Positions 9,459 to 48,470 of a DNA stretch of 64,000 nt are shown piece by piece. Both the position numbers and the translations under genes were made by a program. How positions within the stretch are numbered: position 1 is the first letter of the stretch; every line of letters begins with the position of its first letter. The DNA comes from Acidobacteriota bacterium. GTDB taxonomy: Bacteria > Acidobacteriota > Terriglobia > 2-12-FULL-54-10. The notes beneath the pieces are model-generated. The model was not told where the DNA came from and ran no database searches. It saw only the letters and a list, made by a program, of their open reading frames with translations. Location: NCBI GenBank assembly GCA_009691245.1, contig SHUM01000003.1, forward strand, positions 3,099-67,098, given 5' to 3'.

Positions 9459-9543
9459 ACAGAGCCGCGACCGGAAGGGAGCGGTTGCAATATAGAGTCT
9501 CGCAGGTCCAATGAGAACCGCTCCCTCCCGGTCGCGGCTCTGT
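9459..9543. repeat. Palindromic hairpin repeat, family 1 copy A (28-bp arms ACAGAGCCGCGACCGGAAGGGAGCGGTT / AACCGCTCCCTCCCGGTCGCGGCTCTGT, ~29-nt loop)
   Basis: Arms read directly from the sequence, 1 mismatch. Lies 8 bp downstream of the SprT-like gene stop. Confidence 0.7.
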
Positions 9544-9550
9544 CACGCCA

Positions 9551-10237
9551 CTAGAGCTGCTTCAGCAACTCCTTGGCCTCCGCGTATTGCGGGAAGCGCT
9601 GCTCCTCGGCACGGAACTCGGAGGAATGCACGCAGCGTCGCGTGCCGCGATGCAGCACGGGATATTTCAGGTGTAGCATCTCGTGATAGAGGATGTACTC
9701 CACCAGCCACAACGGCGTCTGTGGACGGTCAAAGATGCGACTCACGATGATGGCGTTATGCGCGGAGTCAAAGTGTCCCAGCAGCACGCGTGACGCCGTG
9801 CGGCTCCAGCCCAGCGAGGGCCGGGCCATCAGCCCGCCGAAGTAGCGCTGGTTCAAGTCCTCGAACATTTCATCCAGATGAAAGTGTGAGCCCGCCGCCA
9901 CGCCCACATGCTTGCGTCCGCGCACACGGCGGATGATCTGCGCCTGATGGCGCACGCTGCTGCGGTTGAGGAACTGGCGGTAGCGTGCCTGGAACTGTGG
10001 CGGAATGGGTTTGCGATAGAGCTTCGAGATCAGGATGTAGGCGATGGACTCCAGCACCGGCGGCGGCGAACCTTCGAGCAGATCGGAGAGGCTGACTTCC
10101 ATGCGGCCCGCGCGCATGCGGATGACGTTGTTGATGTCCGCGTAGGGGCGAAACGACAAGGCGATCTCCGGCAGCGGCGTGCGTGGCCGCACCGCCAGAT
10201 GAACGCGCTCGAAAATTTCCATGCCTGCTGAAGTCAT
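9551..10237 (-). CDS. SprT-like/DUF45 (YgjP-like) zinc metallopeptidase
   Basis: HEXXH motif in ...WLVEYILYHEMLHLKYP...; ~228 aa; fold-family assignment by motif only. Confidence 0.55.
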   Translation of the reverse strand: MTSAGMEIFERVHLAVRPRTPLPEIALSFRPYADINNVIRMRAGRMEVSLSDLLEGSPPPVLESIAYILISKLYRKPIPPQFQARYRQFLNRSSVRHQAQIIRRVRGRKHVGVAAGSHFHLDEMFEDLNQRYFGGLMARPSLGWSRTASRVLLGHFDSAHNAIIVSRIFDRPQTPLWLVEYILYHEMLHLKYPVLHRGTRRCVHSSEFRAEEQRFPQYAEAKELLKQL

Positions 10238-10278
10238 CTTGAAGAGATTAGAATACCGCGTAATGCGGGCGCGCGGGG

Positions 10279-10974
10279 CTACTGTCGATCACTCTTGCGC
10301 GGCGGGCCTTCTTCTGGTGACGGGGCGGGGGCGGCGCCTGAAGTTGAGGCGGGCGGCGCTGGCCGCTTACGAGGCGGACCCTCTTCGCCGTCCTTGCCCG
10401 CTGCTGGACGCGGCCTTTCGCGTGGGTTATCCGGGCGCGGCGGCGCGGCGGGGAACTCCGTGGGCGCGGTGCGCTCGTCCACTTCCGGGAACATTCCCTT
10501 GGCCACGTCTTCGAGCAGTTCTTCGGTAACGGCGATCGATTCTTCCAGAGTGAACTGATAGTTGGCGTAGATGGGCGAAGCGTCATTGTCGAGCGATTCC
10601 AGAAATTGCCGCGACTCGGGCAAACGCGTCTTCAGCAGCTCCATCGCTTTGGGAAACGGCGCGCGGCGTTCACGGGCATCCGCCATCGTGGTCTCAATGG
10701 CTTCGAGTATCTTCGTGTACTGCTCCAGACTTTTCTGCACCGCGCGACCCGCACTGGATTTTGCCGAACCCAGCGCCGCGCGCATCGCGCCCAGCCGCAT
10801 GTCGGCGATCTCCAGATAGAGCGGGATACGCTTCTCCGGCTCCTGCGCGTCGCGCGCCGCATCCACTTCTTCGCGCGTGAGGAAATCCTCCTGCGCCGTC
10901 GCGTGGACTGCGACCGCCAGGAAAATCAGCGCCAGCAGCGCGCATCGCATTATGGAAAACTTCCGGCTCACCAA
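10279..10974 (-). CDS. Hypothetical secreted protein with Pro/Arg/Glu-rich C-terminal tail
   Basis: Signal peptide MRCALLALIFLAVAVHATA; helical body; low-complexity C-terminus (PRPDNPRERPRPAAGKDGEEGPPRKRPAPP). Confidence 0.5.
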   Translation of the reverse strand: MVSRKFSIMRCALLALIFLAVAVHATAQEDFLTREEVDAARDAQEPEKRIPLYLEIADMRLGAMRAALGSAKSSAGRAVQKSLEQYTKILEAIETTMADARERRAPFPKAMELLKTRLPESRQFLESLDNDASPIYANYQFTLEESIAVTEELLEDVAKGMFPEVDERTAPTEFPAAPPRPDNPRERPRPAAGKDGEEGPPRKRPAPPASTSGAAPAPSPEEGPPRKSDRQ

Positions 10975-10991
10975 GGGACGCTCCTTACGGG

Positions 10992-11498
10992 TTACTTCTT
11001 GCTTGGTGGGTGCATGACGCTATACAAAACCGCTTCGCGTAATTGCAGAACCTGCTTCATGACCGCTTCAATCAGCGGACGTTCGTCAGATGAAACGTTG
11101 ATTTGAATCTGTTCCAGTTCGCGCGAATGTCGTCGCAAGCCGACTTCGATATTCCTGGCAGTGCCTGTATGCGCGGCTTCGCTGTTGGCGGCGCTGAGCC
11201 GCGCAAGGGCCGCCGTGTACGATAACAAAATAGAATTACTCTCTTCCATCATGGTGCCGGTGGCGACGAAGGTGCGAATCTTCAACAAATGGTGGTCGAG
11301 CATTTCCAGCGTGAGGCGCGCCCGCTTGCGCGAGTCCTTCTGCTGAGAGAGCGCTTGCTCCAACTCTGCGAGGCTCTTTGGTTCGGCGGATTGGCCCCCC
11401 AAGGCAATACACACCAGCAACAGGGCTGCCATTGCGCGCGCGGTTGCGCGTGAAGTATCTGGACTGAATCGGAGATGCCGCTGGACGCCCGTATTCAT
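10992..11498 (-). CDS. Hypothetical secreted coiled-coil protein
   Basis: Signal peptide (AMAALLLVCIALGGQSA). 168 aa. No recognised domain. Confidence 0.45.
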   Translation of the reverse strand: MNTGVQRHLRFSPDTSRATARAMAALLLVCIALGGQSAEPKSLAELEQALSQQKDSRKRARLTLEMLDHHLLKIRTFVATGTMMEESNSILLSYTAALARLSAANSEAAHTGTARNIEVGLRRHSRELEQIQINVSSDERPLIEAVMKQVLQLREAVLYSVMHPPSKK

Positions 11499-11582
11499 GC
11501 CGATGCACTCCCGCGCTGGTGTATCTGAATGCGATTATAACTTCAAAGGCAGTTGATCCCTAACAGTCCGCGGAAAAAGCCG

Positions 11583-11680
11583 GTTGGTTGTCATTCCGAG
11601 CGGAGCGAGGAATCTGTTTTTGTCCCGCGCGGCTGAAAACAAAAGCAGGTTCCTCGCTCCGCTCGGAATGACAACCAAAC
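11583..11680. repeat. Palindromic repeat family 2 copy (arms TTGGTTGTCATTCCGAGCGGAGCGAGGAA, 29 bp perfect, with a nested inner dyad CTGTTTTTGT/ACAAAAGCAG)
   Basis: Near-perfect ~100-bp palindrome read directly. Sits 6 bp downstream of the TPR gene stop (minus strand). Confidence 0.65.
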
Positions 11681-11686
11681 AACGTA

Positions 11687-13063
11687 CTACTTGCGGCCAC
11701 CCTTGCGTTGCAACTCGCGCGTCAGGACCCGAGATCGTTCTTTCGCCTGAAACTGCTGGTCGGGATTCTTGCCGTCGGCGAGCGCAAGAAACTTTTGATA
11801 ATTATCCAGCGCGCCCTGCTGCGCCCGGAGCTGATCGAGCGACAGCGCGCGCAGAAAGTAGGTGCCCGCCGTATCCGCGCCCAGCTTGGCCACCTGATCC
11901 AGCGCGGCGACGGTGCGGGGATAGTCCTTGAGCAGATAGAGTGCGGAAGCGAGGTTCGTCCAGCCCAGCGAGGATTTGGGGTCCAGCTCCACGCCGCGCG
12001 CGAACGACTGCGCGGCCTCGGCGTAGCGCTTCACCTCGTTGCGCAAGCTGCCGAGCGCCAGATGCAGGTTCGCCTGGTTCGGCTGGGCAGCGATCATCTC
12101 GATCAGCAGAGGCTCGGCGCGGCCCTTCTGGTTCGTTGCGAGATAGGCTTCGAGCAGCAACTGATTGGCCCCTGGCGCGCGCGCAGCCTCGGTCCGCACG
12201 GCTTCCAGATGCGTGATAGCCTCGGTGGCGCGCTTTTCGGCCAGATAGAGTTCGGCCAGATGCAGACGCAACTCCTTGCGCGCGGGCTGGGCTTTCAGAA
12301 AGTCTTCGTAAAGTTGCAGCGCCTCATCGCGAACCGTTGTGGCGGGCGCGCTGCGGTCTTCGAGCAGACGGGCGAGCGTGAGACGCGCTTCCTGCTCCTC
12401 CGGCATCTCGCGCGCCACGATGCGCAACTGCGCCTCGGCCGCCGCCGGATCGCTTTGCGCGAGCAGCGCGGCCAGGTCCATGCGCGTCGTGTGGTTCTCC
12501 GGACGCAGCTTCAGCGCCGCTTCATACGCCGTGCGCGCTTCCGGCACGCGGCCCAGATTTCCCAGCGCATGGCCCAGTTCGGTCAGCGCGGTCCAGTGGT
12601 CCGGCTGCGCGGCAACCACGCGGCGCAGATGCTCGATGGCTTCTTCGTTTTTTCCATCCTGGCGCAACAGCATGCCCAGATTCATGCGGGCGGAAAGCAA
12701 GTCCGGCTGCGCGGCCAGGACTTTGCGATATTGTTCGATGGCCTCCACGGCGCGATTGGTCATGCTGTAGGAGTAAGCGAGATTGAAGCGCGCGGGAACA
12801 TCCGAGGGCGACTGCGCAAGATACGCTTCAAGCAACGCTACGGCCGATTGGTAATCATCTTTATCGAGCGCCGCGCCGGCCTGTTGCAGCAGAGCTTCCG
12901 GGGATGCCGTCGCCGGTGGCGCGGTTTCACTGAATGCGGGCGATGCCGTGCGCGGCGCGGGATACTGCGCCCGCAGGACACTCGGCGCAACGACCAGCAA
13001 AAGCCAGGAGCCGAGGATGACTTTAGATACTCGTGCGAACTTTAGCATTGTGGTATGCACCAA
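11687..13063 (-). CDS. Tetratricopeptide-repeat (TPR) protein, secreted/periplasmic
   Basis: Signal peptide then multiple TPR-like 34-aa units (AxxxYxxAL / LGxxLxxxGxxxEA periodicity). Confidence 0.75.
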   Translation of the reverse strand: MVHTTMLKFARVSKVILGSWLLLVVAPSVLRAQYPAPRTASPAFSETAPPATASPEALLQQAGAALDKDDYQSAVALLEAYLAQSPSDVPARFNLAYSYSMTNRAVEAIEQYRKVLAAQPDLLSARMNLGMLLRQDGKNEEAIEHLRRVVAAQPDHWTALTELGHALGNLGRVPEARTAYEAALKLRPENHTTRMDLAALLAQSDPAAAEAQLRIVAREMPEEQEARLTLARLLEDRSAPATTVRDEALQLYEDFLKAQPARKELRLHLAELYLAEKRATEAITHLEAVRTEAARAPGANQLLLEAYLATNQKGRAEPLLIEMIAAQPNQANLHLALGSLRNEVKRYAEAAQSFARGVELDPKSSLGWTNLASALYLLKDYPRTVAALDQVAKLGADTAGTYFLRALSLDQLRAQQGALDNYQKFLALADGKNPDQQFQAKERSRVLTRELQRKGGRK

Positions 13064-13171
13064 GGCTTGAAATATCCGCCTGTTGCCACCTCCATGCTAC
13101 TTCAAATGAATGGGCAAGGATCAACTGACAACGGAACTTTTCTCTAACCTTTTTTTTGACGGACACTGTAT

Positions 13172-13252
13172 CAGAGCCCCGACCGCCAGGGAGGGGGCAC
13201 GTTCGCCGATTAGCAGTGACCGTTGTGCGTGCCCCCTTCCTGGCGGTCGGGC
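13172..13252. repeat. Hairpin repeat family 1b, degenerate copy (left arm CAGAGCCCCGACCGCCAGGGAGGGGGCACG; right arm CGTGCCCCCTTCCTGGCGGTCGGGC)
   Basis: Same arm sequence as the perfect copy at 48644..48730, with an indel and loss of the terminal TCTG on the right. 21 bp downstream of the uvrA stop. Confidence 0.55.
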
Positions 13253-13272
13253 CATGATACACCCCTGACAGC

Positions 13273-16200
13273 TTAATCATCGGAGGCGGACTCGCCCCAT
13301 TGCTGATGGCGGTCCAGTATCTGGCGCAGGAAGAGCCCGGTGTGAGACGCGGGACATTCGGCGACCTGCTCGGGCGTGCCGGCGCAGACCACCTCTCCGC
13401 CGCGGTCGCCGCCCTCGGGGCCGAGGTCGATCACCCAGTCGGCGGTCTTGATGACGTCCAGGTTATGCTCGATGACCACGATGCTGCCGCCTTGATCTAT
13501 CAGCTTGCGGAAGGCGGCCAGGAGCTTCGCGATGTCGTCGAAGTGCAGGCCCGTGGTGGGCTCGTCGAATAAAAACAGAGTGCCTTCCGATTCTTTAGCG
13601 GCCAGATGAGAAGCCAGCTTGATGCGCTGCGCTTCGCCGCCCGAGAGCGTCGTCGCCGACTGGCCGAGGCGCAGATAACCGAGGCCTACCTCATCGAGAA
13701 TGCGCAGGCGGTTGGCGACCGTGATGGCCATGCTGAAAAAACTCAGCGCCTCCTTCACGGTGAGGCGCAGGATTTCATGAATGTTCCTGCCGCGGTAATT
13801 GATCTCCAGCACGCCGGGCTTGAAGCGCGTGCCGCTGCAATCCTCGCAGACCAGCTCGACGTCGGCCAGGAACTGCATCTCAACCGTAACGATGCCGCTG
13901 CCCTGACAGGTCTCGCAGCGCCCACCGGGGATGTTGAATGAGAAGTGGCCCGGCAGGTAGCCGCGCTTGCGCGACTCAGGCTGGTCGGCGAACAGCGAGC
14001 GGATGGGATCGAAGGCTTTCATGTACGTAACGGGATTCGAGCGCGGCGTGCGGCCGATGGGCGATTGATCGACCATCACTACTTTCTGAATGGACTCGGC
14101 GCCGTCCACGCGGCGGCAGGCAAGCTTGCGACCCATGGCTACTTCTTCGCTGTCGTCGCCGGCCGGTGCGTCGAATAGCGGCCCGCCGCCTTCCTTCTTC
14201 TCCGCCTTGCCGGAGTCGTCCGCGCCGCGATCGCGCAACGCGTCGAACAGCACATCGTAGATGAGCGACGACTTGCCCGAGCCGGAGACGCCGGTTACCG
14301 CCACTAGCAGTCCCAGTGGGATTGCAACATCCACTTCCTTCAGATTGTGACTGAACGCTCCGTGAATTTTGATCTGTTTTTTGGGTGAAGGCTTGCGACG
14401 TTTTGAAGGCAGGCTGATGCGCAGGTCGCCGCGCAGATAGCGGCCCGTGAGCGTCGAATTGCTGGCCAGCAGTTCGTGGTAGCGTCCCGCGAACTGCACA
14501 CGTCCGCCGTTCTCGCCCGCGGCGGGGCCGAGGTCCAGGATGCGGTCGGCGGCCTCCATCATGGTCGGGTCATGTTCGACGACGACGATGGTGTTGCCTT
14601 GATCGCGCAGCGCCTCCAAAATGCGAATCAGCCGCGCGGTGTCCCGGCTGTGCAGGCCCACCGACGGCTCGTCCAATACATAAAGCGTACCGACCAGATG
14701 CGAGCCGAGCGAAGCGGCCAGTTGAATGCGCTGGGCCTCGCCGCCGGAGAGCGTGGAGGTCAGCCGGTCCAGAGTCAAATACTCGAGGCCCACGTTCTCC
14801 AGATATTCCACGCGCTGGCGAATCTCGGTGAGAATCTTGCCCGCGATGGCCTCCTGCACGCCGCCGAGCAGCAGCTCGTCGAAGAAGCGGCGCAGGCGCT
14901 GGATGCTCATGCGGCAGACGCCGCGGATGTCCTCGCCGCCCACCTTTACGGCAAACGCTTCGCGGCGCAGGCGTCCGCCCTGGCACTCCGGACACAGCGC
15001 GTAGCCACGGAAGCGGCTCAGGAAGACGCGCACGTGCAGCTTGTATTTCTTGGTTTCCAGATACGCGAAGAAGCCGTTGATACCCACCAGCGCGCGGCGT
15101 CCGCGCTTGCCCTCGACGCGGCCATCCCACACGAACTCTTTTTCTTCGGCGGTGAGTTTGTAGTAGGGAACATCCATGCGCACGCCGCGCTCGCGCGCTT
15201 CTTTGCGGAACTCGGTGAAGAAGACCCGGTAGCGCGGCTTGGTCCAGGGCTCGATGGCGCCGTCTTCCAGCGAGCGCGTCTTGTCGGGGATGACCAGTTC
15301 CTCATCAAAGTCGATGGTGTTGCCGAAGCCCTGGCAGCGCGGGCATGCGCCGTAGGGACTATTGAAGGAGAACAGGCGCGGCTCGGGCACTTCGTAGGAA
15401 AGTTTGCAGGGCTTGCACTCGAAGAGTTCGTTGAAGGTGAGCCGCGCAGGCAGCGCGGCCAACGAAGGATGCCCGGCGGCGTCAGTAAATTCGACGATGG
15501 CCTCGCCGCCTTCGCGGTAACACAGCTCCAGACTATCCACCAGGCGCTGCCGCGATTGCGCGTCAATCACCATACGGTCGGCCAGCATCCACACGGGCCG
15601 GCGAAAATCGACATCCAGCAGAGCTTCGGGCGTGGAAAATTCGAAGAGGTTGCCATCCTGATAGAGCCGCGTGTAACCCAGTTTGCGCAGATCGAACAGG
15701 CGGGCCTTCACTTGATCCGAGAGCGAAAGCGGCGTTGCGGTGAGGACCGTATCGATGCTTGCGGCTGCTGCTTTCTTGCGGCTGGCGGCGGTCTTCTTCG
15801 CGGCCTTCACCGCTGCTGGCGATTTTTCGGAAGCGGCTGCGGGTGGTGCTCCGCCAGCGTCTGCGCGGACCAGAGGAAACAAAATGTATGCGCGCAGGCC
15901 GCTTTCGGGGCCGCCGCTGGAGCTGGCGTCGTGGGCGAGCCGCAGCAAGCGCGCGGCGACTTCGTCCACCGTGTCCTTCTTCACTTCGGCGCCGCACTGC
16001 GCGCAATACGTCTGCCCGACGCGCGCGTAGAGCAGGCGCAGATAATCGTAAATTTCGGTGGAGGTGCCCACGGTGGAGCGCGGATTGCGCGTGGTGTTCT
16101 TCTGGCGGATGGCGATGGAGGGCGCGATGCCGTCAATCTCGTCGGCGTCTGGCTTCTCCATGCGCTCCAGGAACTGCCGCGCATAGGCTGACATCGACTC

Positions 16201-16410
16201 GACATACCGGCGCTGCCCCTCGGCATAGAGCGTGTCAAACGCCAGCGACGACTTGCCCGAGCCGCTCACGCCGGTGATGACCGTCAGATGATTGAGCGGA
16301 ATATCAACGTCAATATTCTTGAGGTTGTGGACGCGGCAGCCGCGCACACGGATGCTCTCCACCTCAGTGGATCGAGGCGCGGGAACAGCGCGATGTATGG
16401 CGGTGGCCAT
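13273..16410 (-). CDS. uvrA: Excinuclease ABC subunit A (long form, 1045 aa, with Ala/Lys-rich inserts)
   Basis: Two ABC ATPase modules (GVSGSGKSSLAFDT; GVSGSGKSSLIYD), zinc-finger cysteines, LSGGEAQRI signatures. Confidence 0.95.
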   Translation of the reverse strand: MATAIHRAVPAPRSTEVESIRVRGCRVHNLKNIDVDIPLNHLTVITGVSGSGKSSLAFDTLYAEGQRRYVESMSAYARQFLERMEKPDADEIDGIAPSIAIRQKNTTRNPRSTVGTSTEIYDYLRLLYARVGQTYCAQCGAEVKKDTVDEVAARLLRLAHDASSSGGPESGLRAYILFPLVRADAGGAPPAAASEKSPAAVKAAKKTAASRKKAAAASIDTVLTATPLSLSDQVKARLFDLRKLGYTRLYQDGNLFEFSTPEALLDVDFRRPVWMLADRMVIDAQSRQRLVDSLELCYREGGEAIVEFTDAAGHPSLAALPARLTFNELFECKPCKLSYEVPEPRLFSFNSPYGACPRCQGFGNTIDFDEELVIPDKTRSLEDGAIEPWTKPRYRVFFTEFRKEARERGVRMDVPYYKLTAEEKEFVWDGRVEGKRGRRALVGINGFFAYLETKKYKLHVRVFLSRFRGYALCPECQGGRLRREAFAVKVGGEDIRGVCRMSIQRLRRFFDELLLGGVQEAIAGKILTEIRQRVEYLENVGLEYLTLDRLTSTLSGGEAQRIQLAASLGSHLVGTLYVLDEPSVGLHSRDTARLIRILEALRDQGNTIVVVEHDPTMMEAADRILDLGPAAGENGGRVQFAGRYHELLASNSTLTGRYLRGDLRISLPSKRRKPSPKKQIKIHGAFSHNLKEVDVAIPLGLLVAVTGVSGSGKSSLIYDVLFDALRDRGADDSGKAEKKEGGGPLFDAPAGDDSEEVAMGRKLACRRVDGAESIQKVVMVDQSPIGRTPRSNPVTYMKAFDPIRSLFADQPESRKRGYLPGHFSFNIPGGRCETCQGSGIVTVEMQFLADVELVCEDCSGTRFKPGVLEINYRGRNIHEILRLTVKEALSFFSMAITVANRLRILDEVGLGYLRLGQSATTLSGGEAQRIKLASHLAAKESEGTLFLFDEPTTGLHFDDIAKLLAAFRKLIDQGGSIVVIEHNLDVIKTADWVIDLGPEGGDRGGEVVCAGTPEQVAECPASHTGLFLRQILDRHQQWGESASDD

Positions 16411-16516
16411 AGATAAGTCTGATACAGACTGCCGAACCCTGTATTATACCGCCTATTGCCGCCGCGTTCCACTCTACCGACGTGGGGCTCGATGGCAGGG
16501 AGCGGCTGGTTGCCGA

Positions 16517-17683: not shown

Positions 17684-17743
17684 GTCCCATTCTCGCTTGG
17701 CGCGGCTACCGCCCGCAACCCGACGTGGCGCGGGCGTTGCGCA

Positions 17744-17826
17744 ACAGAGCCGCGACCGAGAGGGAGCGGTAGTTGGATGGCATATCAGCATTCATGGAAC
17801 CGCTCCCTCTCGGTCGCGGCTCTGTT
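17744..17826. repeat. Palindromic hairpin repeat, family 1 copy B (27-bp perfect arms AACAGAGCCGCGACCGAGAGGGAGCGGT, 28-nt loop)
   Basis: Perfect inverted repeat read directly. Lies between divergent gene starts (17683 minus, 17966 plus). Confidence 0.75.
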
Positions 17827-19100: not shown

Positions 19101-19225
19101 AAGTTGTCATTCCGAGGAGCGTCGCGACGAGGAATCTGCTGTTCATCAGAGCCGCGCGCGCAAGCAAGCGGACCCGCCCGGTCAACGCGGAAAGCAGATT
19201 CATCACTGCGCTCGGAATGACAGTA
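19101..19225. repeat. Palindromic repeat family 2, degenerate copy (TTGTCATTCCGAGGAGCG...GAGGAATCTGCTG // CAGATTCATCACTGCGCTCGGAATGACAG)
   Basis: Shares the GTCATTCCGAG / CTCGGAATGAC termini and GAGGAATCTG core with 11583..11680. Sits 20 bp after the NHL gene stop. Confidence 0.5.
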
Positions 19226-19278
19226 CAACAGGTACAGTCCTCCAAGTGAAAAACGTCACCACGGGCGGTAACATTTAG

Positions 19279-24017: not shown

Positions 24018-24272
24018 CCGTCAGGGCACGACTTTAGTCGTGCTGTAGAAACGGGTTTATCAACTTTTTTACCACTCTGCCGAAGGCCCAAGCGCAGGCG
24101 CAGCCGGAGCGGGAAGGATGAATTGCGCCGTCCTGCTGGGGCCATGTTAGCGCCGGAAGGTCCAACACAACATTATCTCGCTGCGCCTGCGGCTGCGGTT
24201 GAGCCTTCGGCAGAGAGGCAGAACTGTTTCTCTTGCATGCTATGGCGGCACGACTAAAGTCGTGCCCTGACG
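24018..24272. repeat. 255-bp palindromic element with 25-bp perfect terminal inverted repeats (CGTCAGGGCACGACTTTAGTCGTGC) and inner imperfect dyads; MITE-like
   Basis: TIRs read directly at 24018-24042 and 24248-24272. Inner arms CTCTGCCGAAGGCCCAAGCGCAGGCGCAGC / GCTGCGCCTGCGGCTGCGGTTGAGCCTTCGGCAGAG. Immediately upstream of the BrnA-like gene. Confidence 0.55.
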
Positions 24273-40839: not shown

Positions 40840-40973
40840 ATTTCTCCTCAACTTCCCCAATCCATCGCAAAAACAATACTGCCGAAGAGGCACGGAGACA
40901 CTGAGAAATCAGGGGTTCCAGCGCATCCCTTAGCCTCGCTGTGCCACCGTGCCTCTGTGGCGGCATGGTGGGA

Positions 40974-41389: not shown

Positions 41390-42373
41390 TTAGGCGATGC
41401 CCGCTTTGCGTGAGCGGCCAATCACTCGGGCGACCGAGTATATGCGGCGTTGTTGCCCTTCGAAGTAAATGCGCGTCAGCAGCTCCCCGATCAAGCCAGT
41501 TGAGATGAGTTGAATGCCAGCGATCACGGCCATTGCCCCCACGATCAGCAGCGGCCCGTGTTCGATGAAGATGGCATGACCCATCAGCTTACGCGCCAGC
41601 AGAAAGCTGAACACACCGCCACCCACCGTGAAGCAGGCCAGCCCGATCATGCCGAAGAAGTGCAGCGGGCGCGTAATATACCGCAGCAGAAAGCGCACTG
41701 TCAGCAGATCAAACAGGACACGAAAGGTCCGATCCAGCCCGTAATGGGACTTCCCCGCGGGCCGCTCGATATTGTGAATGGGAATCTCCGTCATCCGCGC
41801 GCCCTGCAAACTGGCCAGTGCTGGAATGAATCGATGCAGCTCGCCGTAGAGATTAACGGCGCGAATCGTGTCCCTGCGGTAGGCCTTGAACGTCGTCCCG
41901 AAATCATGCAGCTCCACTCCAGAGAGTTTGCGCATGGCCCAGTTGGCCATCCTGGAGGGCAGCCGTCGCGTGACGTAATCGTCCACGCGCTCCTTGCGCC
42001 ATCCGCTGACAATGTCGTAGCCCTCATGAATCTTGGTAATGAACGCGGGTAGGTCAGTGGGATCGTGTTGATAGTCGCCGTCCATGGAGATGATGATGTC
42101 GCCGCGCGCGTAGTCGAATCCGGCGGCCAGCGCCGGCGTCTGGCCGAAGTTACGGCGCAACTGCACGATCACCACGCGCGAATCAAGCGAGGCGATCTGT
42201 TCCAGCAGCGCGGGTGAGCCGTCGGAGCTCGCGTCATCGACGAAGACGATCTCAAATTCCCAACCGTGGGCTTCCATGGTCTCTACAATCTTGGAGAACA
42301 GCGGGATGAGGCTGTCCTCTTCGTTGTGGATGGGAATCACGACGGAGTAGAGCGGAGACTTCTCTTTTTTCAT
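41390..42373 (-). CDS. GT2-family polyprenyl-phosphate hexose/HexNAc transferase (DPM1/ArnC/GtrB-like) with two C-terminal TM helices
   Basis: YSVVIPIHNEEDSL, DDASSDGS, DGDYQHDP (DXD) motifs; C-terminal TM pair typical of GtrB/ArnC-type enzymes. Confidence 0.8.
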   Translation of the reverse strand: MKKEKSPLYSVVIPIHNEEDSLIPLFSKIVETMEAHGWEFEIVFVDDASSDGSPALLEQIASLDSRVVIVQLRRNFGQTPALAAGFDYARGDIIISMDGDYQHDPTDLPAFITKIHEGYDIVSGWRKERVDDYVTRRLPSRMANWAMRKLSGVELHDFGTTFKAYRRDTIRAVNLYGELHRFIPALASLQGARMTEIPIHNIERPAGKSHYGLDRTFRVLFDLLTVRFLLRYITRPLHFFGMIGLACFTVGGGVFSFLLARKLMGHAIFIEHGPLLIVGAMAVIAGIQLISTGLIGELLTRIYFEGQQRRIYSVARVIGRSRKAGIA

Positions 42374-42396
42374 GCCTGAATCTGATCCCTCCCCTC

Positions 42397-43365
42397 TCAC
42401 TTTGCCCGTCCGAGCTTGGCGTGTCCAACTGAGTTGGCCGAGTTTGAGGACATCCCCAGAACCGAGCTGCCGGCGGCCTGATGTGCCAGCACGGGCAGCT
42501 CACGATAGCTGACCAGTTGGATGCCATATTCGCGGAGTGTGTCATGCACGGCGGGATCGCAGAGCGCCTCCAACTCGCGCTGTCGCTCCGCCTGCAGGAT
42601 TGTAGGGGAACCGGCCAGCGCGGCGTCAGCGTATCCAGGGTGGCATATCAGTTCCGTAGTGCCCTCCGGAAGCCGCACTAGCGTGGCATGCAGAGAATGG
42701 ATCGTCAACGCTCCAGTCAGGACAAACCCGCTGAAGTGATCCGGGCAGCGCAGACCGTTGGTGGCTCTCATGTCGGACACTGCGCGGTCAAATGAACCGG
42801 CCAGCATACGGAGAACCGCCGCCAGGATACGCCGCGTGCCGTTTCCAAATTGCGCGGGCGGTGAAACATTTTCAAACGGGCGGCGCAGCCATCCAATGCC
42901 ATAGCGCAGGGCCGTTCGCGCGACGGCCGCCGCCACCGTCGGGTGCAGTTGCGTGTGTTGATGCGTGTCCAGGTGGCTGGGCTGAATCCCCGCGGCCAGC
43001 AGCCGCTCCACCTGCGCCGCGCACTCACGCTCAATCTCCGTGCCGCTTACCGCTCGCGTGATTAGACGCCAGCCCAATCGTTTCGAGCCCAGCAATCGTC
43101 CGCCCGCATCCACCAGACTGGGTAGCGACGCTGCGGGTGAGACCGGCTGGCCATCCACAAGATTCAGATGACAACCAACATCCAGCCACGGCGATTGGCG
43201 AGCTAGTTCCACGGCGTCATCAAACGCCGGAGCGTTCGCCATTAAGGAAGTGGCGGTAACAATTCCGCGCCCGCCCTGCCCATTTTGATGACAAGCTTCG
43301 ACAATGGCCCGGTTGACTCCCCGGGTGTAGCCAAAATCATCCGCGTTGACGATTAACTGCTTCAT
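42397..43365 (-). CDS. YdjC/ChbG-family carbohydrate deacetylase
   Basis: MKQLIVNADDFGYTRGVNRAI N-terminus and conserved His/Asp metal site (HLDTHQH). 23 bp upstream of the GT2 gene, same strand. Confidence 0.8.
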   Translation of the reverse strand: MKQLIVNADDFGYTRGVNRAIVEACHQNGQGGRGIVTATSLMANAPAFDDAVELARQSPWLDVGCHLNLVDGQPVSPAASLPSLVDAGGRLLGSKRLGWRLITRAVSGTEIERECAAQVERLLAAGIQPSHLDTHQHTQLHPTVAAAVARTALRYGIGWLRRPFENVSPPAQFGNGTRRILAAVLRMLAGSFDRAVSDMRATNGLRCPDHFSGFVLTGALTIHSLHATLVRLPEGTTELICHPGYADAALAGSPTILQAERQRELEALCDPAVHDTLREYGIQLVSYRELPVLAHQAAGSSVLGMSSNSANSVGHAKLGRAK

Positions 43366-43719
43366 CTCTGGAAAATTCACCAATTCCCGCAGGTCCGGGG
43401 CGCCGCCGCCCTATCATTATATATCCAGTTTGGTGAGGTTCCAGAGCAACCGCAGCCAACCAATGCGGCAAGGATGCATCCATGTAATTGACAGGAAAGG
43501 CCCTTGCTGACGAGTGATGAGGAGAGAATCCATATTGACTGGCATTTTCCGGCGAACGGATAAGGTCGCCACGGAACTGGCCAATGGTTCCGTTGTTCGA
43601 GTACACTTGATCTCTAGTGATTTCAAGGTGATAGGGCGATCTGCGTGGCGCACATCGGAAGTCCAGGCGGGCTGTAACACCCAGTGTAAAGGCTCGGTTG
43701 GAGGAATTGGACTAACTAT

Positions 43720-45018
43720 ATGACCAATAAAAATGATGAGAAAATCGGCTATTGCCAATTGGCGATTTCTGTCCGTCCACTCCTGCTCGCGGTGGCTTCC
43801 CGTCTGCTGGTCCTGCTCCCTCTGACTATCTGGCAAACTCCATTTGCCCGCGCTCAGGCCGTTCCCTCCGAGGACCCGGTTCCGCTGATCATCTTGATGG
43901 ACAAGCTGGATCATGGTCAGGTGGCTGACGCCGAGCGTTACCTGAAGGACAATCCGCCGGTCATCAAGAAGCGCCTGGAGGAGTTGATCGAGCAGCGCGA
44001 CACGCGCTTCGACGAACTCGGTCGTTTCGGGGCGACCAGCGGCCACGACATTCACAAGCGGGTGCTTGACCAGTTTGTCTCGGAGAATCTTCGTTACGCC
44101 AAACTGTTCGACCTGTATCGTAAAGTTACCGGCGATCAGAACATCTTCAAGCGCTTCGAGGCGCGCCGCCTGCGCTATGAAGGCGCATTCCTGACGCACG
44201 ATGGCGAGGACCTCTGCGGCGAGGAGTTCAACTGGGACGAGGCGCGCAAGCACTATCAGCAATCACTCGACAAGCTGGAGGCCGGCTTCGCCATCGCCAA
44301 GGAGATCAATGAACTGCGCGTGATGGCCTCGGCCAAGATCAACATCGGTTCCACGCTCATCCGCATGCTGGAGACCGACCGCGCCATCGCTGCCTACAAG
44401 GAGGGCATGGAGTATGCCGACAAGCTGCCCGGCGAGCTGTACCGTGGCATGGTGCGGCTGAACCTCGGCAACACCTACGTATGGACCGTCGAGCCCGAGA
44501 AGGCCTTTACCTACGCCAACGACGCGCTGACCAGCTTCAAGAAGATGGGCCGTGGCACTTGGCAATCGAACGCCATGATGGTGATCGGCAACGCGCAGAT
44601 GGAGCAGAAGAATTTCGCCAGTTCTTGGGAGACGCTCAGCGCCGCGCTCGCTGTCGCCAAGCAGTCCGGGGAAGATCGCGTGCGCGGCAAGGCGCTGATG
44701 AACCTGGGTGCCGTCGCGGCGCAGCTCAAGCGTCCTGATGCCGCCAGCTACATCCTGGAAGCGCAGGATTGGTACCGCACGCACGGCGAGGTCTTCACGC
44801 AGATCGAGCGCGAGACGGTGGCCGTGGATGGCCTGATGTCGCTCAGTCGCATCTACCAGCAGGCCGGCAACAAGGCTGAAGCGGACAAATACCGCATGGC
44901 CTATCACAAAGCGGTTGGCGAAGACCCCGACCATTACAATCTGGTGCGCAACAGCCCGTGCTACGCGCTCTACAAAGCCAATCCGGCCAACAAGAACAAC
45001 GAAGCAAAAAATAAGTAA
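43720..45018 (+). CDS. Secreted TPR-like repeat protein, function unknown
   Basis: Signal-like LLAVASRLLVLLPLTIWQTPFARAQA. Helical repeat composition (LNLGNTYV..., ALMNLGAVAAQL...). The overlapping minus ORF 43417..44262 is Leu-rich antisense-like. Confidence 0.5.
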   Translation: MTNKNDEKIGYCQLAISVRPLLLAVASRLLVLLPLTIWQTPFARAQAVPSEDPVPLIILMDKLDHGQVADAERYLKDNPPVIKKRLEELIEQRDTRFDELGRFGATSGHDIHKRVLDQFVSENLRYAKLFDLYRKVTGDQNIFKRFEARRLRYEGAFLTHDGEDLCGEEFNWDEARKHYQQSLDKLEAGFAIAKEINELRVMASAKINIGSTLIRMLETDRAIAAYKEGMEYADKLPGELYRGMVRLNLGNTYVWTVEPEKAFTYANDALTSFKKMGRGTWQSNAMMVIGNAQMEQKNFASSWETLSAALAVAKQSGEDRVRGKALMNLGAVAAQLKRPDAASYILEAQDWYRTHGEVFTQIERETVAVDGLMSLSRIYQQAGNKAEADKYRMAYHKAVGEDPDHYNLVRNSPCYALYKANPANKNNEAKNK

Positions 45019-45095
45019 GCCGGTTTGCGGCTCACCGTTGCGGATACAATAGGCTTCAGTTGCACCGAGTCAGTTTGCGATTGAAGGTGAGCTTC

Positions 45096-48000
45096 ATGAT
45101 CTGGCCACCATCTGGAAAGTCACCGCGCCTGCGCGCCAGAACGTTTTCTCGTTCCCATTCCACATTGCTATCCGCTTTGCTAGTCCTGCTTACCCCGCAG
45201 GTGGCCGTACACGCGCAATCAGTCGGCGGGACCATCCGCGGGCAGGTGCGTGATTCGAGTGGCGGGGCCATTGCTTCCGCGGTGCTCCTGTTGCGCGACA
45301 CCGATAAAGGTCTCGACTACACCGGCCACAGCGACCCCTCCGGCGTGTTTCAATTCGCAGCCCCGGTAGGCAACTACGAGCTTCAGGCGTCCGCGCCGAA
45401 TTTCACGGCGGTGAAAGAGGTGAGGCTCAATCTGTCGCTCGGGCAAACCATCATGCTGGAGATTGCGCTGCCCGTCGCGGGCATCCAGCAAAGTATTGAA
45501 GTGGTCGCGACGGCCCCGCTGGTCGAGACCACCAGCGGCGTGTTGGCGGGACTGGTCAGTCGCGAGCAGTTGGCCGCGCTGCCGCTGAACGGCCGCGACT
45601 TCGGACAGCTCGCGCTACTGCAGCCCGGCGTGGCCGCCAACTCGAACGGTGCGAACTCGCCTTTCGGCGGACGCTGGGCCACGTTTGTAGTGAATGGACA
45701 GCTCGATCAATCCACATTGTTCCTCGTCGATGGCTCGGAGTTGAACGACTTGGCCTCAGGGCGGAACCCCAGTGGATCAAGCGGCCTGCTGCTCGGACTC
45801 GACTCGGTGCAGGAGTTTCAGGTCCTGTTGCACAACTACAAAGCCGAGTTCGGCAAGAACTCCGGCGGCGTCATCCACGTGGCCACGCGCTCGGGCACCA
45901 ACGCGCTGCGCGGCACGGTGTTCGAATTTCTGCGCAACAGCAGGCTCGACGCGAAGAATTTCTTCGACCTTTCCGCGCAGCCCATCCCCGCCTTCCAGCG
46001 CAATCAATTCGGCGCATCGCTCGGCGGCCCGCTGCGCCGCGACCGAACGTTTTTCTTCTTGAGCTACGAGGGACTGCGCGAGCGCAAGGCCATCACCAGC
46101 GTGGCCACTGTTCCTGCGGCGGGGGTGCGTGCGAGCGCGGCGGGTAACGTCATTCCCTTTCTCAATCTCTATCCGCTGCCCAACGGCCCGCTAAATCCAG
46201 ACGGTCGCACCGCCAGCTTCTCTTCGAGCGTCGTGCAACCCGCGCGGGAGGATTTCGGGTTGGTGCGCATCGATCATCGCCTGCGCCGCGAATGGAACTC
46301 CCACACGAAGTTTTCCACGCAAGACAGCCTGGTCGAGCCGCCCTTTGCTTCCACTCCCGTGCCGGGATTTCCGCAGAGCTTGCCGCATCGCATCACCAAC
46401 GCGCTGGTGGGCCTCACCGTGCCCTTCTCGGCGAATGCGCTGGGCGATTTTCACTTCGCCTTCAATCGTACTTTCGGCGCCATCGAGCTGCCGCCGCCGC
46501 CCGGCGGGCTGACCATCACGCCAGTGGCAGGCCGCAACTTTGGCCTGATCAACGTAACGGGCATCTCCAATCTCGGCACGCAGACGTTCGTGCCGCGCGC
46601 CGCGCAGAATCTTTTTGAATCTGCCGCACAGTTTTCTATCCGCCAGGGCCGCCACGCACAGAAGTACGGCGTTACCGTACAGCGCTATCAGGACAACGAA
46701 CTGCGCGGGACGTTCTTCAACGGTCAGTACACCTTTGCCGGACTCACGCAGTTTCTCGCCGGCACACCCGCTTCGTGGCTTGGCGTGCTGGGCGGAACCA
46801 GTGCCGCTGGCCCCGCTTCGCCCGCTGGGTGGCGCTGGACTACGATCAGTGCATTCGCGCAGGAAGATTTCGAGCTGACGCCGCGCTTCACCTTGAACCT
46901 CGGCCTGCGCTATGAGTTCACTACTTCGCCCGGCGATGTCCTCGGCCAGATCGCCAACTTGCGCTCGCCGCTGGACGCCACCGTCACGCTCGGCGGGTCG
47001 CTGTTCAACACCATCGCGCGCTCCTTCTCGCCGCGCTTTGGATTTGCATGGAGTCCGACTCGAGGTAATCGAAGTGATGAGCGCTCGGCGCTGCGCGGCG
47101 GCTTCGGAATTTTCTATAATCCGCTGGTGGTGAACATGTGGGCCAACTCGCGCCTGGTGCCGCCGTTTGTGAACACCGTGCTGCTGGCGGGCGGGCCGCC
47201 ATTTCCCAATCCGCTGGCCACGGGCCGCGCGCCCGCGCTCTCGACCACGGGGCAGGCGCTCGACTTCAATCTCAGCCAGCCTTATACCATGCAGTGGAAC
47301 ATCGAGTGGCAGCAGCAGTTCGCCGACGGCTGGGTGACGCGCGCCGCCTACGCCGGCAATCGCAGCCTGCACATCCTGCGCTCGCTCGAATCGAACCCCG
47401 GCACGCCGGTCGTCCTCGCCGACGGGCGCAAGTGCTTCAACTTTCTCGCCGCCGCCGGTGGCTCCAACGCCGCCTGCCCGTCCGGCTCCACCGTACGCCG
47501 CAACCTGAATTTCGGGCCGATCCGCGGTCGCTCCTCCGACGGACGCTCGTGGTATGACTCGCTGCAATTCACCGCCGAGCGCCGCATCTCCGATGGAGCA
47601 ACCGTGCAGGGTTCCTACACATGGAGCAAGTCGCTCAGCACCAACAACTCGTCGTTCACCTCGTTTCCGAGTCAACCGTCGAACACGCAAGACCCCGACG
47701 ACATATACCTCGACAAAGCCGTCTCGGCTTTCGATGTTCGCCACCGCCTTGCCGTACACGCCATCCTCGCGCTGCCCTCGTTCGCGCCGGGCGCGCCCGG
47801 GCGCGTGCTGCACGGGTGGCGCATTGCGGCCATCGGCTCGCTCTCTTCTGGGTATCCGTTCACGGTGGTGGACGGCATCAATCGCTCGCAGAATCTCCAG
47901 ACCGATGTCGCTCTCGCCGACCGTCCGAACTGGGCCGCTCGCGCGACTGTTGCAGGGGCGACCAGCGGAGTCTCCAGGGCTTGTCGCATTGATGGACAGG

Positions 48001-48377
48001 AGCTTTTCGGCGGACGCAAACTGGGCACTCCCGATCTGTACTTCGATCCGTGCGCGTTCGTTCTACAGCCGCAGGGCTTCTACGGCAACGCCGCGCGCAA
48101 CGCGCTCACCGGCCCGGGATTTTTCAATGCCGATCTTTCGCTGAGCAGAAACTTTGCGCTGCACGAGCGGCAGCAGCTTGAGTTCCGCGCCGACCTGTTC
48201 AACATTCTGAACAGGCCCAACTTCGCGACGCCCAGCAGCCCCACCGGCGCGCAGGTCTCCGGCGGCGCCATCGTGTTTCCCGATGCCACCGGCGCGCCCG
48301 CCGGGAATGCGGGACAGATCTTCCGCACGGTGAATGACTCGCGACAGATTCAGTTTTCGTTGCGCTACAGCTTTTAG
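45096..48377 (+). CDS. TonB-dependent receptor with N-terminal carboxypeptidase-regulatory-like domain (start uncertain, 45060-45096)
   Basis: Signal peptide, then a CarboxypepD_reg-like domain (GTIRGQVRDSSGGAIASAVLLL...YELQASAPNF), plug and a long beta-barrel ending in the aromatic terminal strand (...FSLRYSF). Confidence 0.8.
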   Translation: MIWPPSGKSPRLRARTFSRSHSTLLSALLVLLTPQVAVHAQSVGGTIRGQVRDSSGGAIASAVLLLRDTDKGLDYTGHSDPSGVFQFAAPVGNYELQASAPNFTAVKEVRLNLSLGQTIMLEIALPVAGIQQSIEVVATAPLVETTSGVLAGLVSREQLAALPLNGRDFGQLALLQPGVAANSNGANSPFGGRWATFVVNGQLDQSTLFLVDGSELNDLASGRNPSGSSGLLLGLDSVQEFQVLLHNYKAEFGKNSGGVIHVATRSGTNALRGTVFEFLRNSRLDAKNFFDLSAQPIPAFQRNQFGASLGGPLRRDRTFFFLSYEGLRERKAITSVATVPAAGVRASAAGNVIPFLNLYPLPNGPLNPDGRTASFSSSVVQPAREDFGLVRIDHRLRREWNSHTKFSTQDSLVEPPFASTPVPGFPQSLPHRITNALVGLTVPFSANALGDFHFAFNRTFGAIELPPPPGGLTITPVAGRNFGLINVTGISNLGTQTFVPRAAQNLFESAAQFSIRQGRHAQKYGVTVQRYQDNELRGTFFNGQYTFAGLTQFLAGTPASWLGVLGGTSAAGPASPAGWRWTTISAFAQEDFELTPRFTLNLGLRYEFTTSPGDVLGQIANLRSPLDATVTLGGSLFNTIARSFSPRFGFAWSPTRGNRSDERSALRGGFGIFYNPLVVNMWANSRLVPPFVNTVLLAGGPPFPNPLATGRAPALSTTGQALDFNLSQPYTMQWNIEWQQQFADGWVTRAAYAGNRSLHILRSLESNPGTPVVLADGRKCFNFLAAAGGSNAACPSGSTVRRNLNFGPIRGRSSDGRSWYDSLQFTAERRISDGATVQGSYTWSKSLSTNNSSFTSFPSQPSNTQDPDDIYLDKAVSAFDVRHRLAVHAILALPSFAPGAPGRVLHGWRIAAIGSLSSGYPFTVVDGINRSQNLQTDVALADRPNWAARATVAGATSGVSRACRIDGQELFGGRKLGTPDLYFDPCAFVLQPQGFYGNAARNALTGPGFFNADLSLSRNFALHERQQLEFRADLFNILNRPNFATPSSPTGAQVSGGAIVFPDATGAPAGNAGQIFRTVNDSRQIQFSLRYSF

Positions 48378-48390
48378 GTTTAGTTTCGAA

Positions 48391-48470
48391 AACAGAGCCG
48401 CGACCGTTAGGGAGCGCGGGTTGCTCCCCGTAACGAAAGCAACCACCGCTCCCTAACGGTCGCGACTCTG
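48391..48470. repeat. Palindromic hairpin repeat, family 1 copy C (arms AACAGAGCCGCGACCGTTAGGGAGCG / CGCTCCCTAACGGTCGCGACTCTG, loop with nested hairpin)
   Basis: Read directly. 14 bp after the TonB-dependent receptor stop. Confidence 0.65.

Follow-up and report, generated by a model that had tools for sequence, protein, structure and literature searches.

The closest described relatives of the hairpins analyzed here are the REP-like sequences that Quentin and colleagues (Quentin et al. 2018, BMC Genomics 19:475, PMC6006769) listed for the "class 3" TnpA-Y1 (HuH) transposases and that carry a CnGA foot. In Acidobacteria and Planctomycetes, this class 3 unit was described as flanking a small IS200-like ("class 3" Y1) transposase, and Solibacter usitatus has ~600 copies of it. 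Table S1 of that paper gives CAGAGCCGCGACCGTTAGGGAGCG... and CAGAGCCGCGACCGTCAGGGAGCG... for S. usitatus and CCGAGCCGCGACCGTAAGGGAGCGGA for Legionella, together with the fold .....((((..((....))..)))). Experiments on these systems were called for by the authors themselves, and in the literature that we searched, we found no biochemical work on a class 3 TnpA.

The hairpins are real. Our window, the whole 64-kb stretch of DNA that was analyzed, contains 10 full units and 2 partial ones (Table 1). By direct reading of the sequence, hairpins are present at all five places named in the original prediction. An inverted-repeat search gave arms of 24-39 nt that are 85-100% complementary and 12-29 nt apart; in 4 of the 5, the arms pair at 91-100% without bulges. 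The loops had been said to differ completely, and indeed the five have no match to one another, to the rest of the window or to ~250 fetched loci. One detail has to be corrected: The right arm of 13170..13251 lacks its outer 7 nt, and its CnGAG head is gone. The head motif CAGAGCCSCGACCG has 10 matches at ≤1 mismatch in the window, against 0.12 expected from shuffles, and a weight matrix trained on units from other genomes only scores the 10 window units at 29.5-41.4 bits (null maximum 9.6). Folded as single-stranded DNA, the hairpins have energies of -33 to -46.5 kcal/mol (z = -8 to -13). In an independent short-read assembly (Logan SRR8561391, L248), the sequence into the arm by the SprT-like gene is identical, and a break follows there.

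Table 1. Copies and remnants of the repeat unit in the window, with the gene that hosts one of them.
Feature	Position	Strand	Parts or score	Setting
Dimer, tail-to-tail (heads-outward), class 3 REP-like unit	9458..9544		unit(+) 9458-9485, loop, unit(-) 9517-9544	~7 nt past stop of SprT-like gene (9551..10237, -); ~60 nt before start of CHASE2 histidine kinase gene (7500..9398, -)
Subfamily-b dimer (CCCC...GGGG variant, loop GCCA)	13170..13251		unit(+) 13170-13197; right arm 13228-13251	~20 nt past uvrA stop (13273..16410, -)
Perfect dimer, 31/31-nt arms	17743..17826		units 17743-17770 (+), 17799-17826 (-)	divergent 5' intergenic region; membrane protein start ~17683 (-), NHL-repeat protein start ~17969 (+)
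Dimer	48391..48472		units 48391-48418 (+), 48445-48472 (-)	13 nt past OMP/TonB-like stop (48377); before methyltransferase ATG (48490)
Subfamily-b dimer	48642..48731		units 48642-48669 (+), 48704-48731 (-)	within methyltransferase ORF
Solo unit, variant type ATCAGAGCCGCGCGCGCAAGCAAGCGGA	19145..19172	+	30.3 bits	63 nt beyond NHL-repeat gene stop
Half-unit remnant CAGAGCCTCGACCG, head and left stem	62965..62978	-	13/14 bases	2 nt past stop of sigma-54 activator gene (61517..62962, +)
Doubtful collapsed remnant AACAGAGCCG ... CGGCTCCGTT	7441..7473		no full-length score	between convergent CarD-like and kinase genes
Host gene, class I SAM-dependent methyltransferase, 263 aa	48490..49281	+

The repeated entity is the arm and not the hairpin. 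It is a 27-nt unit of the form (W)(W)C-n-G-A-G / CCGCGACC / GNNA / GGGAGCGG, with a 5' foot C-n-G-A(G), a stem of 8 bp (CCGCGACC/GGGAGCGG) whose centre holds two conserved G·A mismatches, and a loop of 4 nt, GNNA. The foot is CAGA in all intact window units, and across 268 units its frequencies are C 0.90, n, G 0.97 and A 0.98. The stem covaries (Fisher 3e-12, 2e-16 and 4e-8): At pair 5-20, 196 units have GC and 12 have CG; at pair 9-16, 183 have CG, 16 have GC and 9 have AT. The G·A at positions 7/18 is retained in 214 of 247 units. ViennaRNA folds a lone arm as ((((..((....))..)))), which is the published shape of 4 bp, 2 mismatches, 2 bp and a 4-nt loop. Each arm is thus a structured stem-loop on its own and is also found alone, which had been overlooked; elsewhere, arms occur solo, head-to-head and in tandem. 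Direct comparison shows that the class 3 sequences of Table S1 match the window arms, and at the level of sequence, the arms are the unit published for the class 3 TnpA-Y1 (HuH) transposases, base for base.

Two of the five hairpins (48391..48472 and 48642..48731) are insertions relative to orthologous loci. At the orthologous loci L122 and L121, the OMP and methyltransferase genes lie 1-5 nt apart, whereas here the dimer 48391..48472 stands between them. The dimer 48642..48731 is in frame in the methyltransferase ORF, where it encodes residues 52-80 (SEPRPPGRGHARDTGMIGNRAPSLAVGAL) and so adds 29 residues; this intragenic copy had escaped the original prediction. The 29-residue segment is missing from the closest homologues (231-239 aa) and falls in a low-confidence linker, with pLDDT < 50 at residues 53-78 and 80-86 and mostly 80-96 in the remainder. 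The same linker of the methyltransferase has been hit repeatedly. The solo unit, also absent from the original prediction, sits in the hairpin loop of another repeat family (19103-19228). Two collapsed remnants had been put forward as possible: The one at 62965-62978 is probably genuine, given its base matches and its place just past a stop codon, and the one at 7441-7473 is indistinguishable from chance.

As had been stated before, there is no cognate transposase in the window; our search of the 64 kb found no class 3 gene. A metagenome scan with the back-translated motif NHVH...YV[VI]xEQ gave 82 in-frame matches, 73 of them with identical spacing. The products match PF01797 Y1_Tnp at 32-34 bits (cutoff 23) and have the motifs NHVH and YV(V/I)xEQ. 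Among the 56 metagenomic class 3 genes with sufficient flank, 41 have a unit(+) on the upstream side, 500-660 nt from the stop; in 36, a unit(-) ends 25-49 nt past the stop; and 31 have both, against a background of 0.053 units per kb. Units also bracket the class 3 gene of L065 (Solibacteraceae), and other class 3 subgroups have their own variant units. The bracketed protein scores 28 bits against NF047646 REP_Tyr_transpos (cutoff 80) and 29-30 bits against NF033573 transpos_IS200 (cutoff 55). The autonomous element, or "REPtron," is 545-580 nt of unit(+) - tnpA - unit(-). Its ends and the window hairpins have the same heads-outward polarity, and the hairpins can therefore be regarded as gene-less miniatures of the REPtron.

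Based on these findings, we propose that the hairpins are very probably non-autonomous paired units of the class 3 TnpA-associated REP that would spread in trans. In each, one 27-nt REP-like unit is present twice, in inverted orientation with the heads outward, and 12-29 nt of unrelated sequence take the place of the gene. Being the REPtron structure minus its gene, they would therefore be non-autonomous elements, as REPINs, BIMEs and PATEs are. The enzyme that makes and spreads them is most likely a class 3 TnpA whose gene lies in another part of the genome; it would act on the folded single-stranded unit and cut at the foot without a target-site duplication. The copies probably persist where they do little harm, that is, in short intergenic regions and in one disordered protein linker.

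The position of the hairpins could also be read as that of host RNA elements, terminators or 3' mRNA stabilizers after genes, whose similarity comes from selection for function. We consider this very unlikely. Three dimers, the solo unit and the half-unit do lie 2-63 nt past stop codons, the folding energies given above are those of highly stable hairpins, and E. coli REPs are established to stabilize the upstream mRNA (cited in PMC6006769). Still, only three of the five hairpins follow a stop, not four as claimed before (those by the SprT-like, uvrA and OMP/TonB-like genes); the exceptions are 17743..17826, in a divergent promoter region, and 48642..48731, inside a coding frame. None of the five is followed by a T-run, and a terminator scan calls none of them, its only two hits being sub-arm ones on the antisense strand at 48439-48463. 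On these grounds, neither terminator use nor targeted insertion at gene ends, both suggested originally, holds up. A scan of a genome collection found at least 120 loci, mostly in Acidobacteriota and Planctomycetota, with crude gene calls. Among the matches listed from these other genomes, the upstream stop is not clearly preferred over the downstream start (39 of 76); solo units among them show no strand bias relative to neighboring genes (27 vs 30). A strong intergenic bias is seen: By the crude calls, 19 of the 137 matches listed that could be classified lie within genes, vs ~76% coding DNA. The same 27 nt, moreover, are found across phyla and bracket a transposase gene, which also argues against an RNA element. 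The original label "REP/MITE-like" is right as to the kind: The arms are a REP-like unit already published together with an IS200-like Y1 transposase, and the hairpins are built like that transposase's own element without the gene. It does not hold for a classical MITE, which derives by deletion from a DDE-transposase insertion sequence and is defined by its terminal inverted repeats. Inverted terminal arms without coding capacity would suit such an origin, but 39 of 66 dimers have no target-site duplication (the others have only 1-4 nt, consistent with an A/T-rich flank), the arms also occur alone, head-to-head and in tandem, each has its own covarying stem-loop, and the bracketed gene encodes a Y1 HuH enzyme and not a DDE one. 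The MITE reading is already contradicted by this evidence and has hardly any probability left. We give even less credence to integron attC-like recombination sites, an analogy drawn earlier from the conserved ends and unrelated centre. That resemblance is formal only, and the sequence already contradicts it: Direct reading of the five copies finds no fit to the RYYYAAC / GTTRRRY cores outside or inside the arms, and the arms have none of the extrahelical bases that define a folded attC. Single copies lie dispersed among housekeeping genes and form no cassette array, and a recurrent-protein screen of the 120 loci listed saw no integrase next to any copy.

How the dimers come to enclose unrelated loops is a separate matter. 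The mobile piece could be the single 27-31-nt unit, with the hairpin assembled on site, either because a newly inserted unit is duplicated in inverted orientation or because a second unit lands beside it, and the loop being local or filler sequence and not cargo; we regard this as possible but rather doubtful. Every window loop is unique, and even the two subfamily-b dimers, which are at separate loci and have 31-nt arms in common, share nothing in their 26-nt loops, an outcome that plain copying of entire dimers does not predict. One and the same variable triplet of the unit's loop stands in both arms of 3 of the 4 window dimers scored and of 24 of 49 elsewhere, vs 7.9 +/- 2.5 for random pairing, a control that takes no account of genome-specific subfamilies. 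Solo units outnumber paired arms (136 vs 82), and tail-to-tail REP dimers tend toward variable spacers (Di Nocera et al. 2013, PMC3733652). Against on-site assembly, nothing in the orthologous empty sites corresponds to the window loops. Some Planctomycetota MAGs contain dimers that have their loops in common although they lie at different loci (two in L037; L051), and on a Bryobacterales chromosome head-to-head dimers have related spacers; whole-dimer copying therefore does occur. A further point against assembly on site is that we know of no established mechanism for inverted duplication at 12-30 nt. It is improbable, in our judgment, that a class 3 TnpA-dependent process propagates only the 27-31-nt unit and makes the inverted partner of that unit on site, around a spacer that is unique in every case, with no dimer copied whole. 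If it did, REP doublets would arise here in another way than by REPIN replication; this would account for arms that are identical around loops that are unrelated and would make the hairpins markers of individual insertion events. A related possibility is that hairpin loops and disordered linkers of proteins serve as targets that are preferred as single strands or are tolerated, which fits the solo unit inside the other family's loop and the repeatedly hit methyltransferase linker.

Gene-less pairs of the class 3 unit share features with several known systems. With attC sites, they have in common conserved ends, a variable centre and single-strand folding, and differ in the cores, extrahelical bases, cassette array and integrase noted above. 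Rickettsia palindromic elements (RPEs) are likewise palindromic repeats that insert in frame into coding genes, where the added peptide segment falls at a surface position that tolerates it, but their sequence is unrelated, they belong to another host group, and no transposase is known for them. Like IS200/IS605 elements and PATEs, the present system combines a Y1 HuH transposase (PF01797), subterminal DNA hairpins that have a short guide/cleavage motif at the foot, and non-autonomous miniature derivatives, and it shows no target-site duplication. Its copy numbers and dispersal seem REP-like, unlike those of IS200/IS605, and it has no tnpB. The units at the two ends of the REPtron are in inverted orientation, whereas the ends of IS608 lie on the same strand, and the IS200/IS605 mechanism is therefore not simply transferable. 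REP/BIME/REPIN sequences with RAYT (class 2 TnpA-REP, Proteobacteria) are also short palindromes of an imperfect kind in which a 5' tetranucleotide is conserved. They, too, occur in single, head-to-head and tail-to-tail forms, the inverted pairs folding into one larger hairpin, and lie mainly between genes, with an occasional in-frame insert of 20-30 aa inside one (Di Nocera et al. 2013, PMC3733652). Their foot is GT[AG]G and not CnGA, REPs are usually species-specific whereas the present unit is conserved across phyla, REPIN spacers are conserved whereas the loops here are not, and the protein bracketed by the present unit, below the NCBIfam REP_Tyr_transpos cutoff, belongs to a separate class from class 2 RAYT. 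As for the class 3 REPs themselves (Quentin et al. 2018), the known systems carry a class 3 gene and the present window does not. PMC6006769 gives units flanking genes and a copy number, and does not include gene-less heads-outward dimers having unrelated loops, in-frame intragenic copies or insertion polymorphism. Yet the CnGAG foot, CCGCGACC / GNNA / GGGAGCGG, the fold, the phyla and the bracketed Y1 gene of ~160-180 aa are all the same, and so, probably, is the high copy number. Each hairpin is a back-to-back pair of an already described 27-base repeat, and the hairpins therefore add a further case to a kind of selfish DNA that is already known.

The five hairpins of the original prediction are all present in the sequence as described, and the family that they form in the window is real and well above chance. 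An inverted-repeat search of the window gave arms of 24-39 nt that are 85-100% complementary, with 12-29 nt between them. The head motif CAGAGCCSCGACCG has 10 matches at no more than 1 mismatch, versus 0.12 expected from dinucleotide-preserving shuffles of the window, and the hairpins, folded as single-stranded DNA, have energies between -33 and -46.5 kcal/mol and z-scores between -8 and -13. The same population was also assembled independently from short reads, and contig L248 of that assembly agrees exactly with the window from the SprT-like gene up to a point inside the arm, where it ends; the hairpins are therefore not an assembly artefact, and the contig ends in the arm because dispersed repeats break assemblies. 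Four of the five copies had been placed just after stop codons, which is true of only 3 of the 5 dimers, since one lies between divergent genes and another within a gene. Among the supposed collapsed remnants, the one at 62965-62978 is probably a half-unit, while that at 7441-7473 is indistinguishable from chance.

Class 3 units and dimers in the window with their gene context from Pfam annotation, and the state of the methyltransferase linker (N-terminal helix to motif I, hypervariable among orthologues) in the window and in comparison loci
Sequence	Position	Feature	Context
Window	9458-9544	dimer	~7 nt past SprT-like stop, ~60 nt ahead of CHASE2 kinase start
Window	13170-13251	dimer, subfamily b	~20 nt past uvrA stop; right arm without outer head
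Window	17743-17826	dimer	between divergently transcribed genes; ~60 nt to one start, 145 nt to the other
Window	48391-48472	dimer	13 nt past outer-membrane-protein stop, 17 nt ahead of methyltransferase ATG
Window	48642-48731	dimer, subfamily b	within methyltransferase ORF, in frame
Window	19145-19172	solo variant unit	in hairpin loop of second repeat family (19103-19228)
Window	62965-62978	half-unit	begins 2 nt past stop codon
Window	48643-48760	subfamily b dimer	methyltransferase linker
L121	1740-1840	subfamily a dimer	methyltransferase linker
L246	1656-1742	9-nt tandem repeat x7	methyltransferase linker
L247	1051-1076	short perfect palindrome	methyltransferase linker
L122		nothing	methyltransferase linker

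The repeated entity is the arm rather than the whole hairpin. Our scan with the arm pattern, with one genome per species, found at least 120 loci; among the matches listed, with taxa read from record titles, about 49 are from Acidobacteriota, about 60 from Planctomycetota and 11 from others (Chloroflexi, Verrucomicrobia, Desulfobacteraceae, a deltaproteobacterial MAG, Rhizomicrobium and Fibrobacteres), some of which may be binning errors. Among these listed matches the arm is commoner alone than paired (136 solo arms versus 41 pairs); head-to-head pairs and tandem arrays of it are seen as well. The consensus of 268 copies is (A/T)(T/A) C-n-G-A-G CCGCGACC G-T-N-A GGGAGCGG (T), and a single arm can form a small stem of 4 bp, two mismatches and 2 bp that is closed by a 4-nt loop. 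At pair 5-20, 196 units have G-C and 12 have C-G; at pair 9-16, 183 have C-G, 16 have G-C and 9 have A-T. Fisher tests of covariation within the arm gave 3e-12, 2e-16 and 4e-8, values that are too strong because the counts are of copies and not of independent events; despite this, the pattern is clear. Of 247 units, 214 retain the central G·A. The covariation supports a small fold within the arm, since a long hairpin has no need of it, and the window's subfamily b (CCCC...GGGG) is a compensated variant of just this kind.

At the gathering threshold, Rfam matches in the window are confined to a cobalamin riboswitch and a tRNA, with nothing for the unit; at permissive E-values the hairpins match only generic miRNA-precursor models, far under their thresholds, and a literature search with the unit's DNA strings returned nothing relevant. 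The unit is found instead in the work on a small class 3 of HuH-Y1 (IS200-like) proteins, mainly of Planctomycetes, Acidobacteria and Proteobacteria (Quentin et al. 2018, PMC6006769). Supplementary Table S1 of that study gives CAGAGCCGCGACCGTTAGGGAGCGTCCCG and CAGAGCCGCGACCGTCAGGGAGCGATCG for S. usitatus and CCGAGCCGCGACCGTAAGGGAGCGGA for Legionella pneumophila, with the fold .....((((..((....))..))))., and the window arm matches these class 3 units base for base. With a weight matrix derived from 197 units in other genomes, the ten window units score 29.5-41.4 bits, and the best of 20 shuffled windows scores 9.6.

Since protein motif searches of the window and of the first 140 unit-selected loci gave no class 3 gene, we scanned metagenome contigs with back-translated class 3 motifs (NHVH, gap, YV[VI]xEQ). 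Of the 102 loci that matched, 82 are in frame, and 73 share an identical span of 201 nt. The products reach 32-34 bits against Pfam Y1_Tnp, above its cutoff of 23. In keeping with a class of their own, they miss the NCBIfam cutoffs for IS200 transposases and for REP-associated tyrosine transposases. Where the flanks are long enough (56 class 3 genes), unit(+) lies 500-660 nt upstream of the stop in 41 (mode 518), an inverted unit has its head ending 25-49 nt past the stop in 36, and both are present in 31; the background density more than 1 kb from class 3 genes is 0.053 units per kb. From this flanking arrangement, the autonomous element is unit(+) - tnpA - unit(-); it spans 545-580 nt, and its CnGAG heads face outward. 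A class 3 gene fragment also adjoins a unit in a Solibacteraceae MAG (L065, by tblastn). Other class 3-like subgroups in metagenomes (L176, L187, L205, L198) are bracketed by ACGAGCCGGAAGCGTCAGCGACGGGC, the Planctomyces limnophilus type listed in Table S1 (PMC6006769), or by CAGAACCGAGCGCGGTAGCGCCGGG. Such subgroup-specific variant units fit cognate recognition and suggest co-evolving enzyme/hairpin pairs.

We saw no tnpA remnants in the loops or in long-spacer pairs, and all-against-all ORF clustering of the at least 120 unit-containing loci gave no recurrent neighbour protein. A plasmid collection held no meaningful match to the unit, and among 2.9 million viral contigs it was found at only 18 loci, so that it is not notably phage-borne. 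Exact-protein look-ups past the window edges returned only short contigs of the same population. A search with a RAYT-like probe gave only an in-frame Y1-like segment in a valyl-tRNA synthetase gene, class 2-like and unrelated to the unit. This gene (L038 89-4117, Phycisphaerales MAG JBGAOZ010000003.1) is a 1342-aa ORF with a segment similar to RAYT-type Y1 transposases (DHVH ... WQ ... YILNNP), beyond which a solo class 3 unit is translated as PLPDGRGSE.

The reading of the repeats as REP-like and non-autonomous, with the cognate enzyme most likely elsewhere, stands in kind, while those of terminators, gene-end targeting and attC sites do not. No T-run follows any of the five hairpins, and none was called terminator-like. 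Gene context was assessed with our own crude gene calls in at least 120 loci from other genomes. Among the matches listed, 19 of 137 classifiable elements are inside genes, about 76% of the DNA being coding; the intergenic elements comprise 76 co-directional, 27 convergent and 15 divergent cases. Elements in co-directional spacers are nearer the upstream stop in 39 of 76, with no clear preference, and solo units are oriented either way relative to genes (27 versus 30). The distribution looks like survival at harmless sites rather than gene-end targeting or a strand-specific RNA function; there may be a secondary effect on mRNA 3' ends. The likeness to MITEs fails for want of a target-site duplication, and that to attC because core sites and extrahelical bases are absent.

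The loops are unrelated, as had been claimed: they have no similarity to one another, to the rest of the window or to about 250 fetched loci, and the two subfamily b dimers have 31-nt arms in common and 26-nt loops without any likeness. Either the dimer may move whole and its centre turn over afterwards, or it may be built on site out of a single unit. Elsewhere, both arms of a dimer carry the same variable loop triplet in 24 of 49 cases, versus 7.9 +/- 2.5 under random pairing, although this control takes no account of genome-specific subfamilies; in some Planctomycetota MAGs, loops are common to dimers at different loci. In other REP families, spacers tend to be variable in tail-to-tail dimers and conserved in head-to-head ones (Di Nocera et al. 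2013, PMC3733652). Head-to-head dimers of the unit, their heads pointing inward, differ from the tail-to-tail dimers of the window and occur at L002 7378-7470 and at L035 1873-1965 and 3633-3725 (Bryobacterales chromosome OZ252029.1); their ~30-nt spacers are alike between loci.

Comparison with orthologues shows two of the copies to be insertions. The window methyltransferase, identical to NCBI MAG protein P0001, has 29 extra residues, SEPRPPGRGHARDTGMIGNRAPSLAVGAL, that its closest homologues (231-239 aa) lack. From the outer-membrane-protein stop to the methyltransferase start there are 1-5 nt in the orthologous loci L122 and L121 versus 112 nt in the window, and L121 has a different dimer, of subfamily a, at the same methyltransferase position. 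The AlphaFold model puts the insert in a linker of low confidence that joins the N-terminal helix to the Rossmann fold; pLDDT is below 50 at residues 53-78 and 80-86, and in the rest of the model it is mostly 80-96. Given this low confidence and the varied inserts in orthologues, the linker is a tolerant site that has been hit repeatedly. The empty site of L122 (ACGGCGTCGCGACCGCTGGG) matches a decayed unit too weakly for a claim; in the same contig, a unit starts 1 nt past the methyltransferase stop. Intragenic REP dimers of 20-30 residues are known in other REP families (Di Nocera et al. 2013, PMC3733652).

A second palindromic family, with the unit GTCATTCCGAGCGGAGCGAGGAATC, occurs at 11584-11678 and 19103-19228. 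Its unit can be drawn as TTCC-GA-GC[GGA]GC-GA-GGAA (4-bp / tandem G·A / 2-bp / loop), the same stem layout as in the class 3 unit. The family is absent from Table S1 (PMC6006769), and a literature search for its string gave no match; another Y1 enzyme may act on it. A third hairpin, at 49285-49356 (25-nt arms, 96% complementary, GAGCCTGTCCGCAGATTACACAGAT), sits between the methyltransferase and alcohol dehydrogenase genes, whose ends converge there. An imperfect palindrome at 24031-24260 has a perfect 13-nt outer inverted repeat, ACTTTAGTCGTGC / GCACGACTAAAGT, around 53-nt arms that are 79% complementary, and it has CTGCCGAAG...CTTCGGCAG-like cores in common with another at 40873-40969. The cobalamin riboswitch (55715-55910, minus strand, 96.7 bits) lies upstream of a TonB-dependent-receptor-like ORF (53086..55632) and is adjoined by the tRNA gene (55952-56024, minus strand).

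For annotation, units and dimers in Acidobacteriota and Planctomycetota MAGs account for breaks in short-read contigs, for spurious small ORFs and for odd peptide inserts (TEPRPxGSG, PLPDGRGS) in real proteins. Class 3 repeats fragment assemblies: short-read contigs from identical or related populations begin or end inside class 3 units at L122 1-24 and 4179-4202 and at the ends of L248 and L249. How REP-type sequences multiply is still unsettled, and the class 3 Y1 transposases, which form a branch between those of IS200 and the RAYTs, have hardly been studied. With a 27-nt cross-phylum substrate, an autonomous element of 545-580 nt and abundant gene-less derivatives, they would offer a compact system for this question. 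The family, its unit sequence, fold, foot and transposase have been known since 2018 (PMC6006769). The window adds examples and no new principle. Its hairpins have the same polarity as the autonomous element, with 12-29 nt in place of the gene, and what they add to the known class is a new host and some anatomical detail, namely dimers with their heads outward, one copy in frame within a gene, and two dated insertions.
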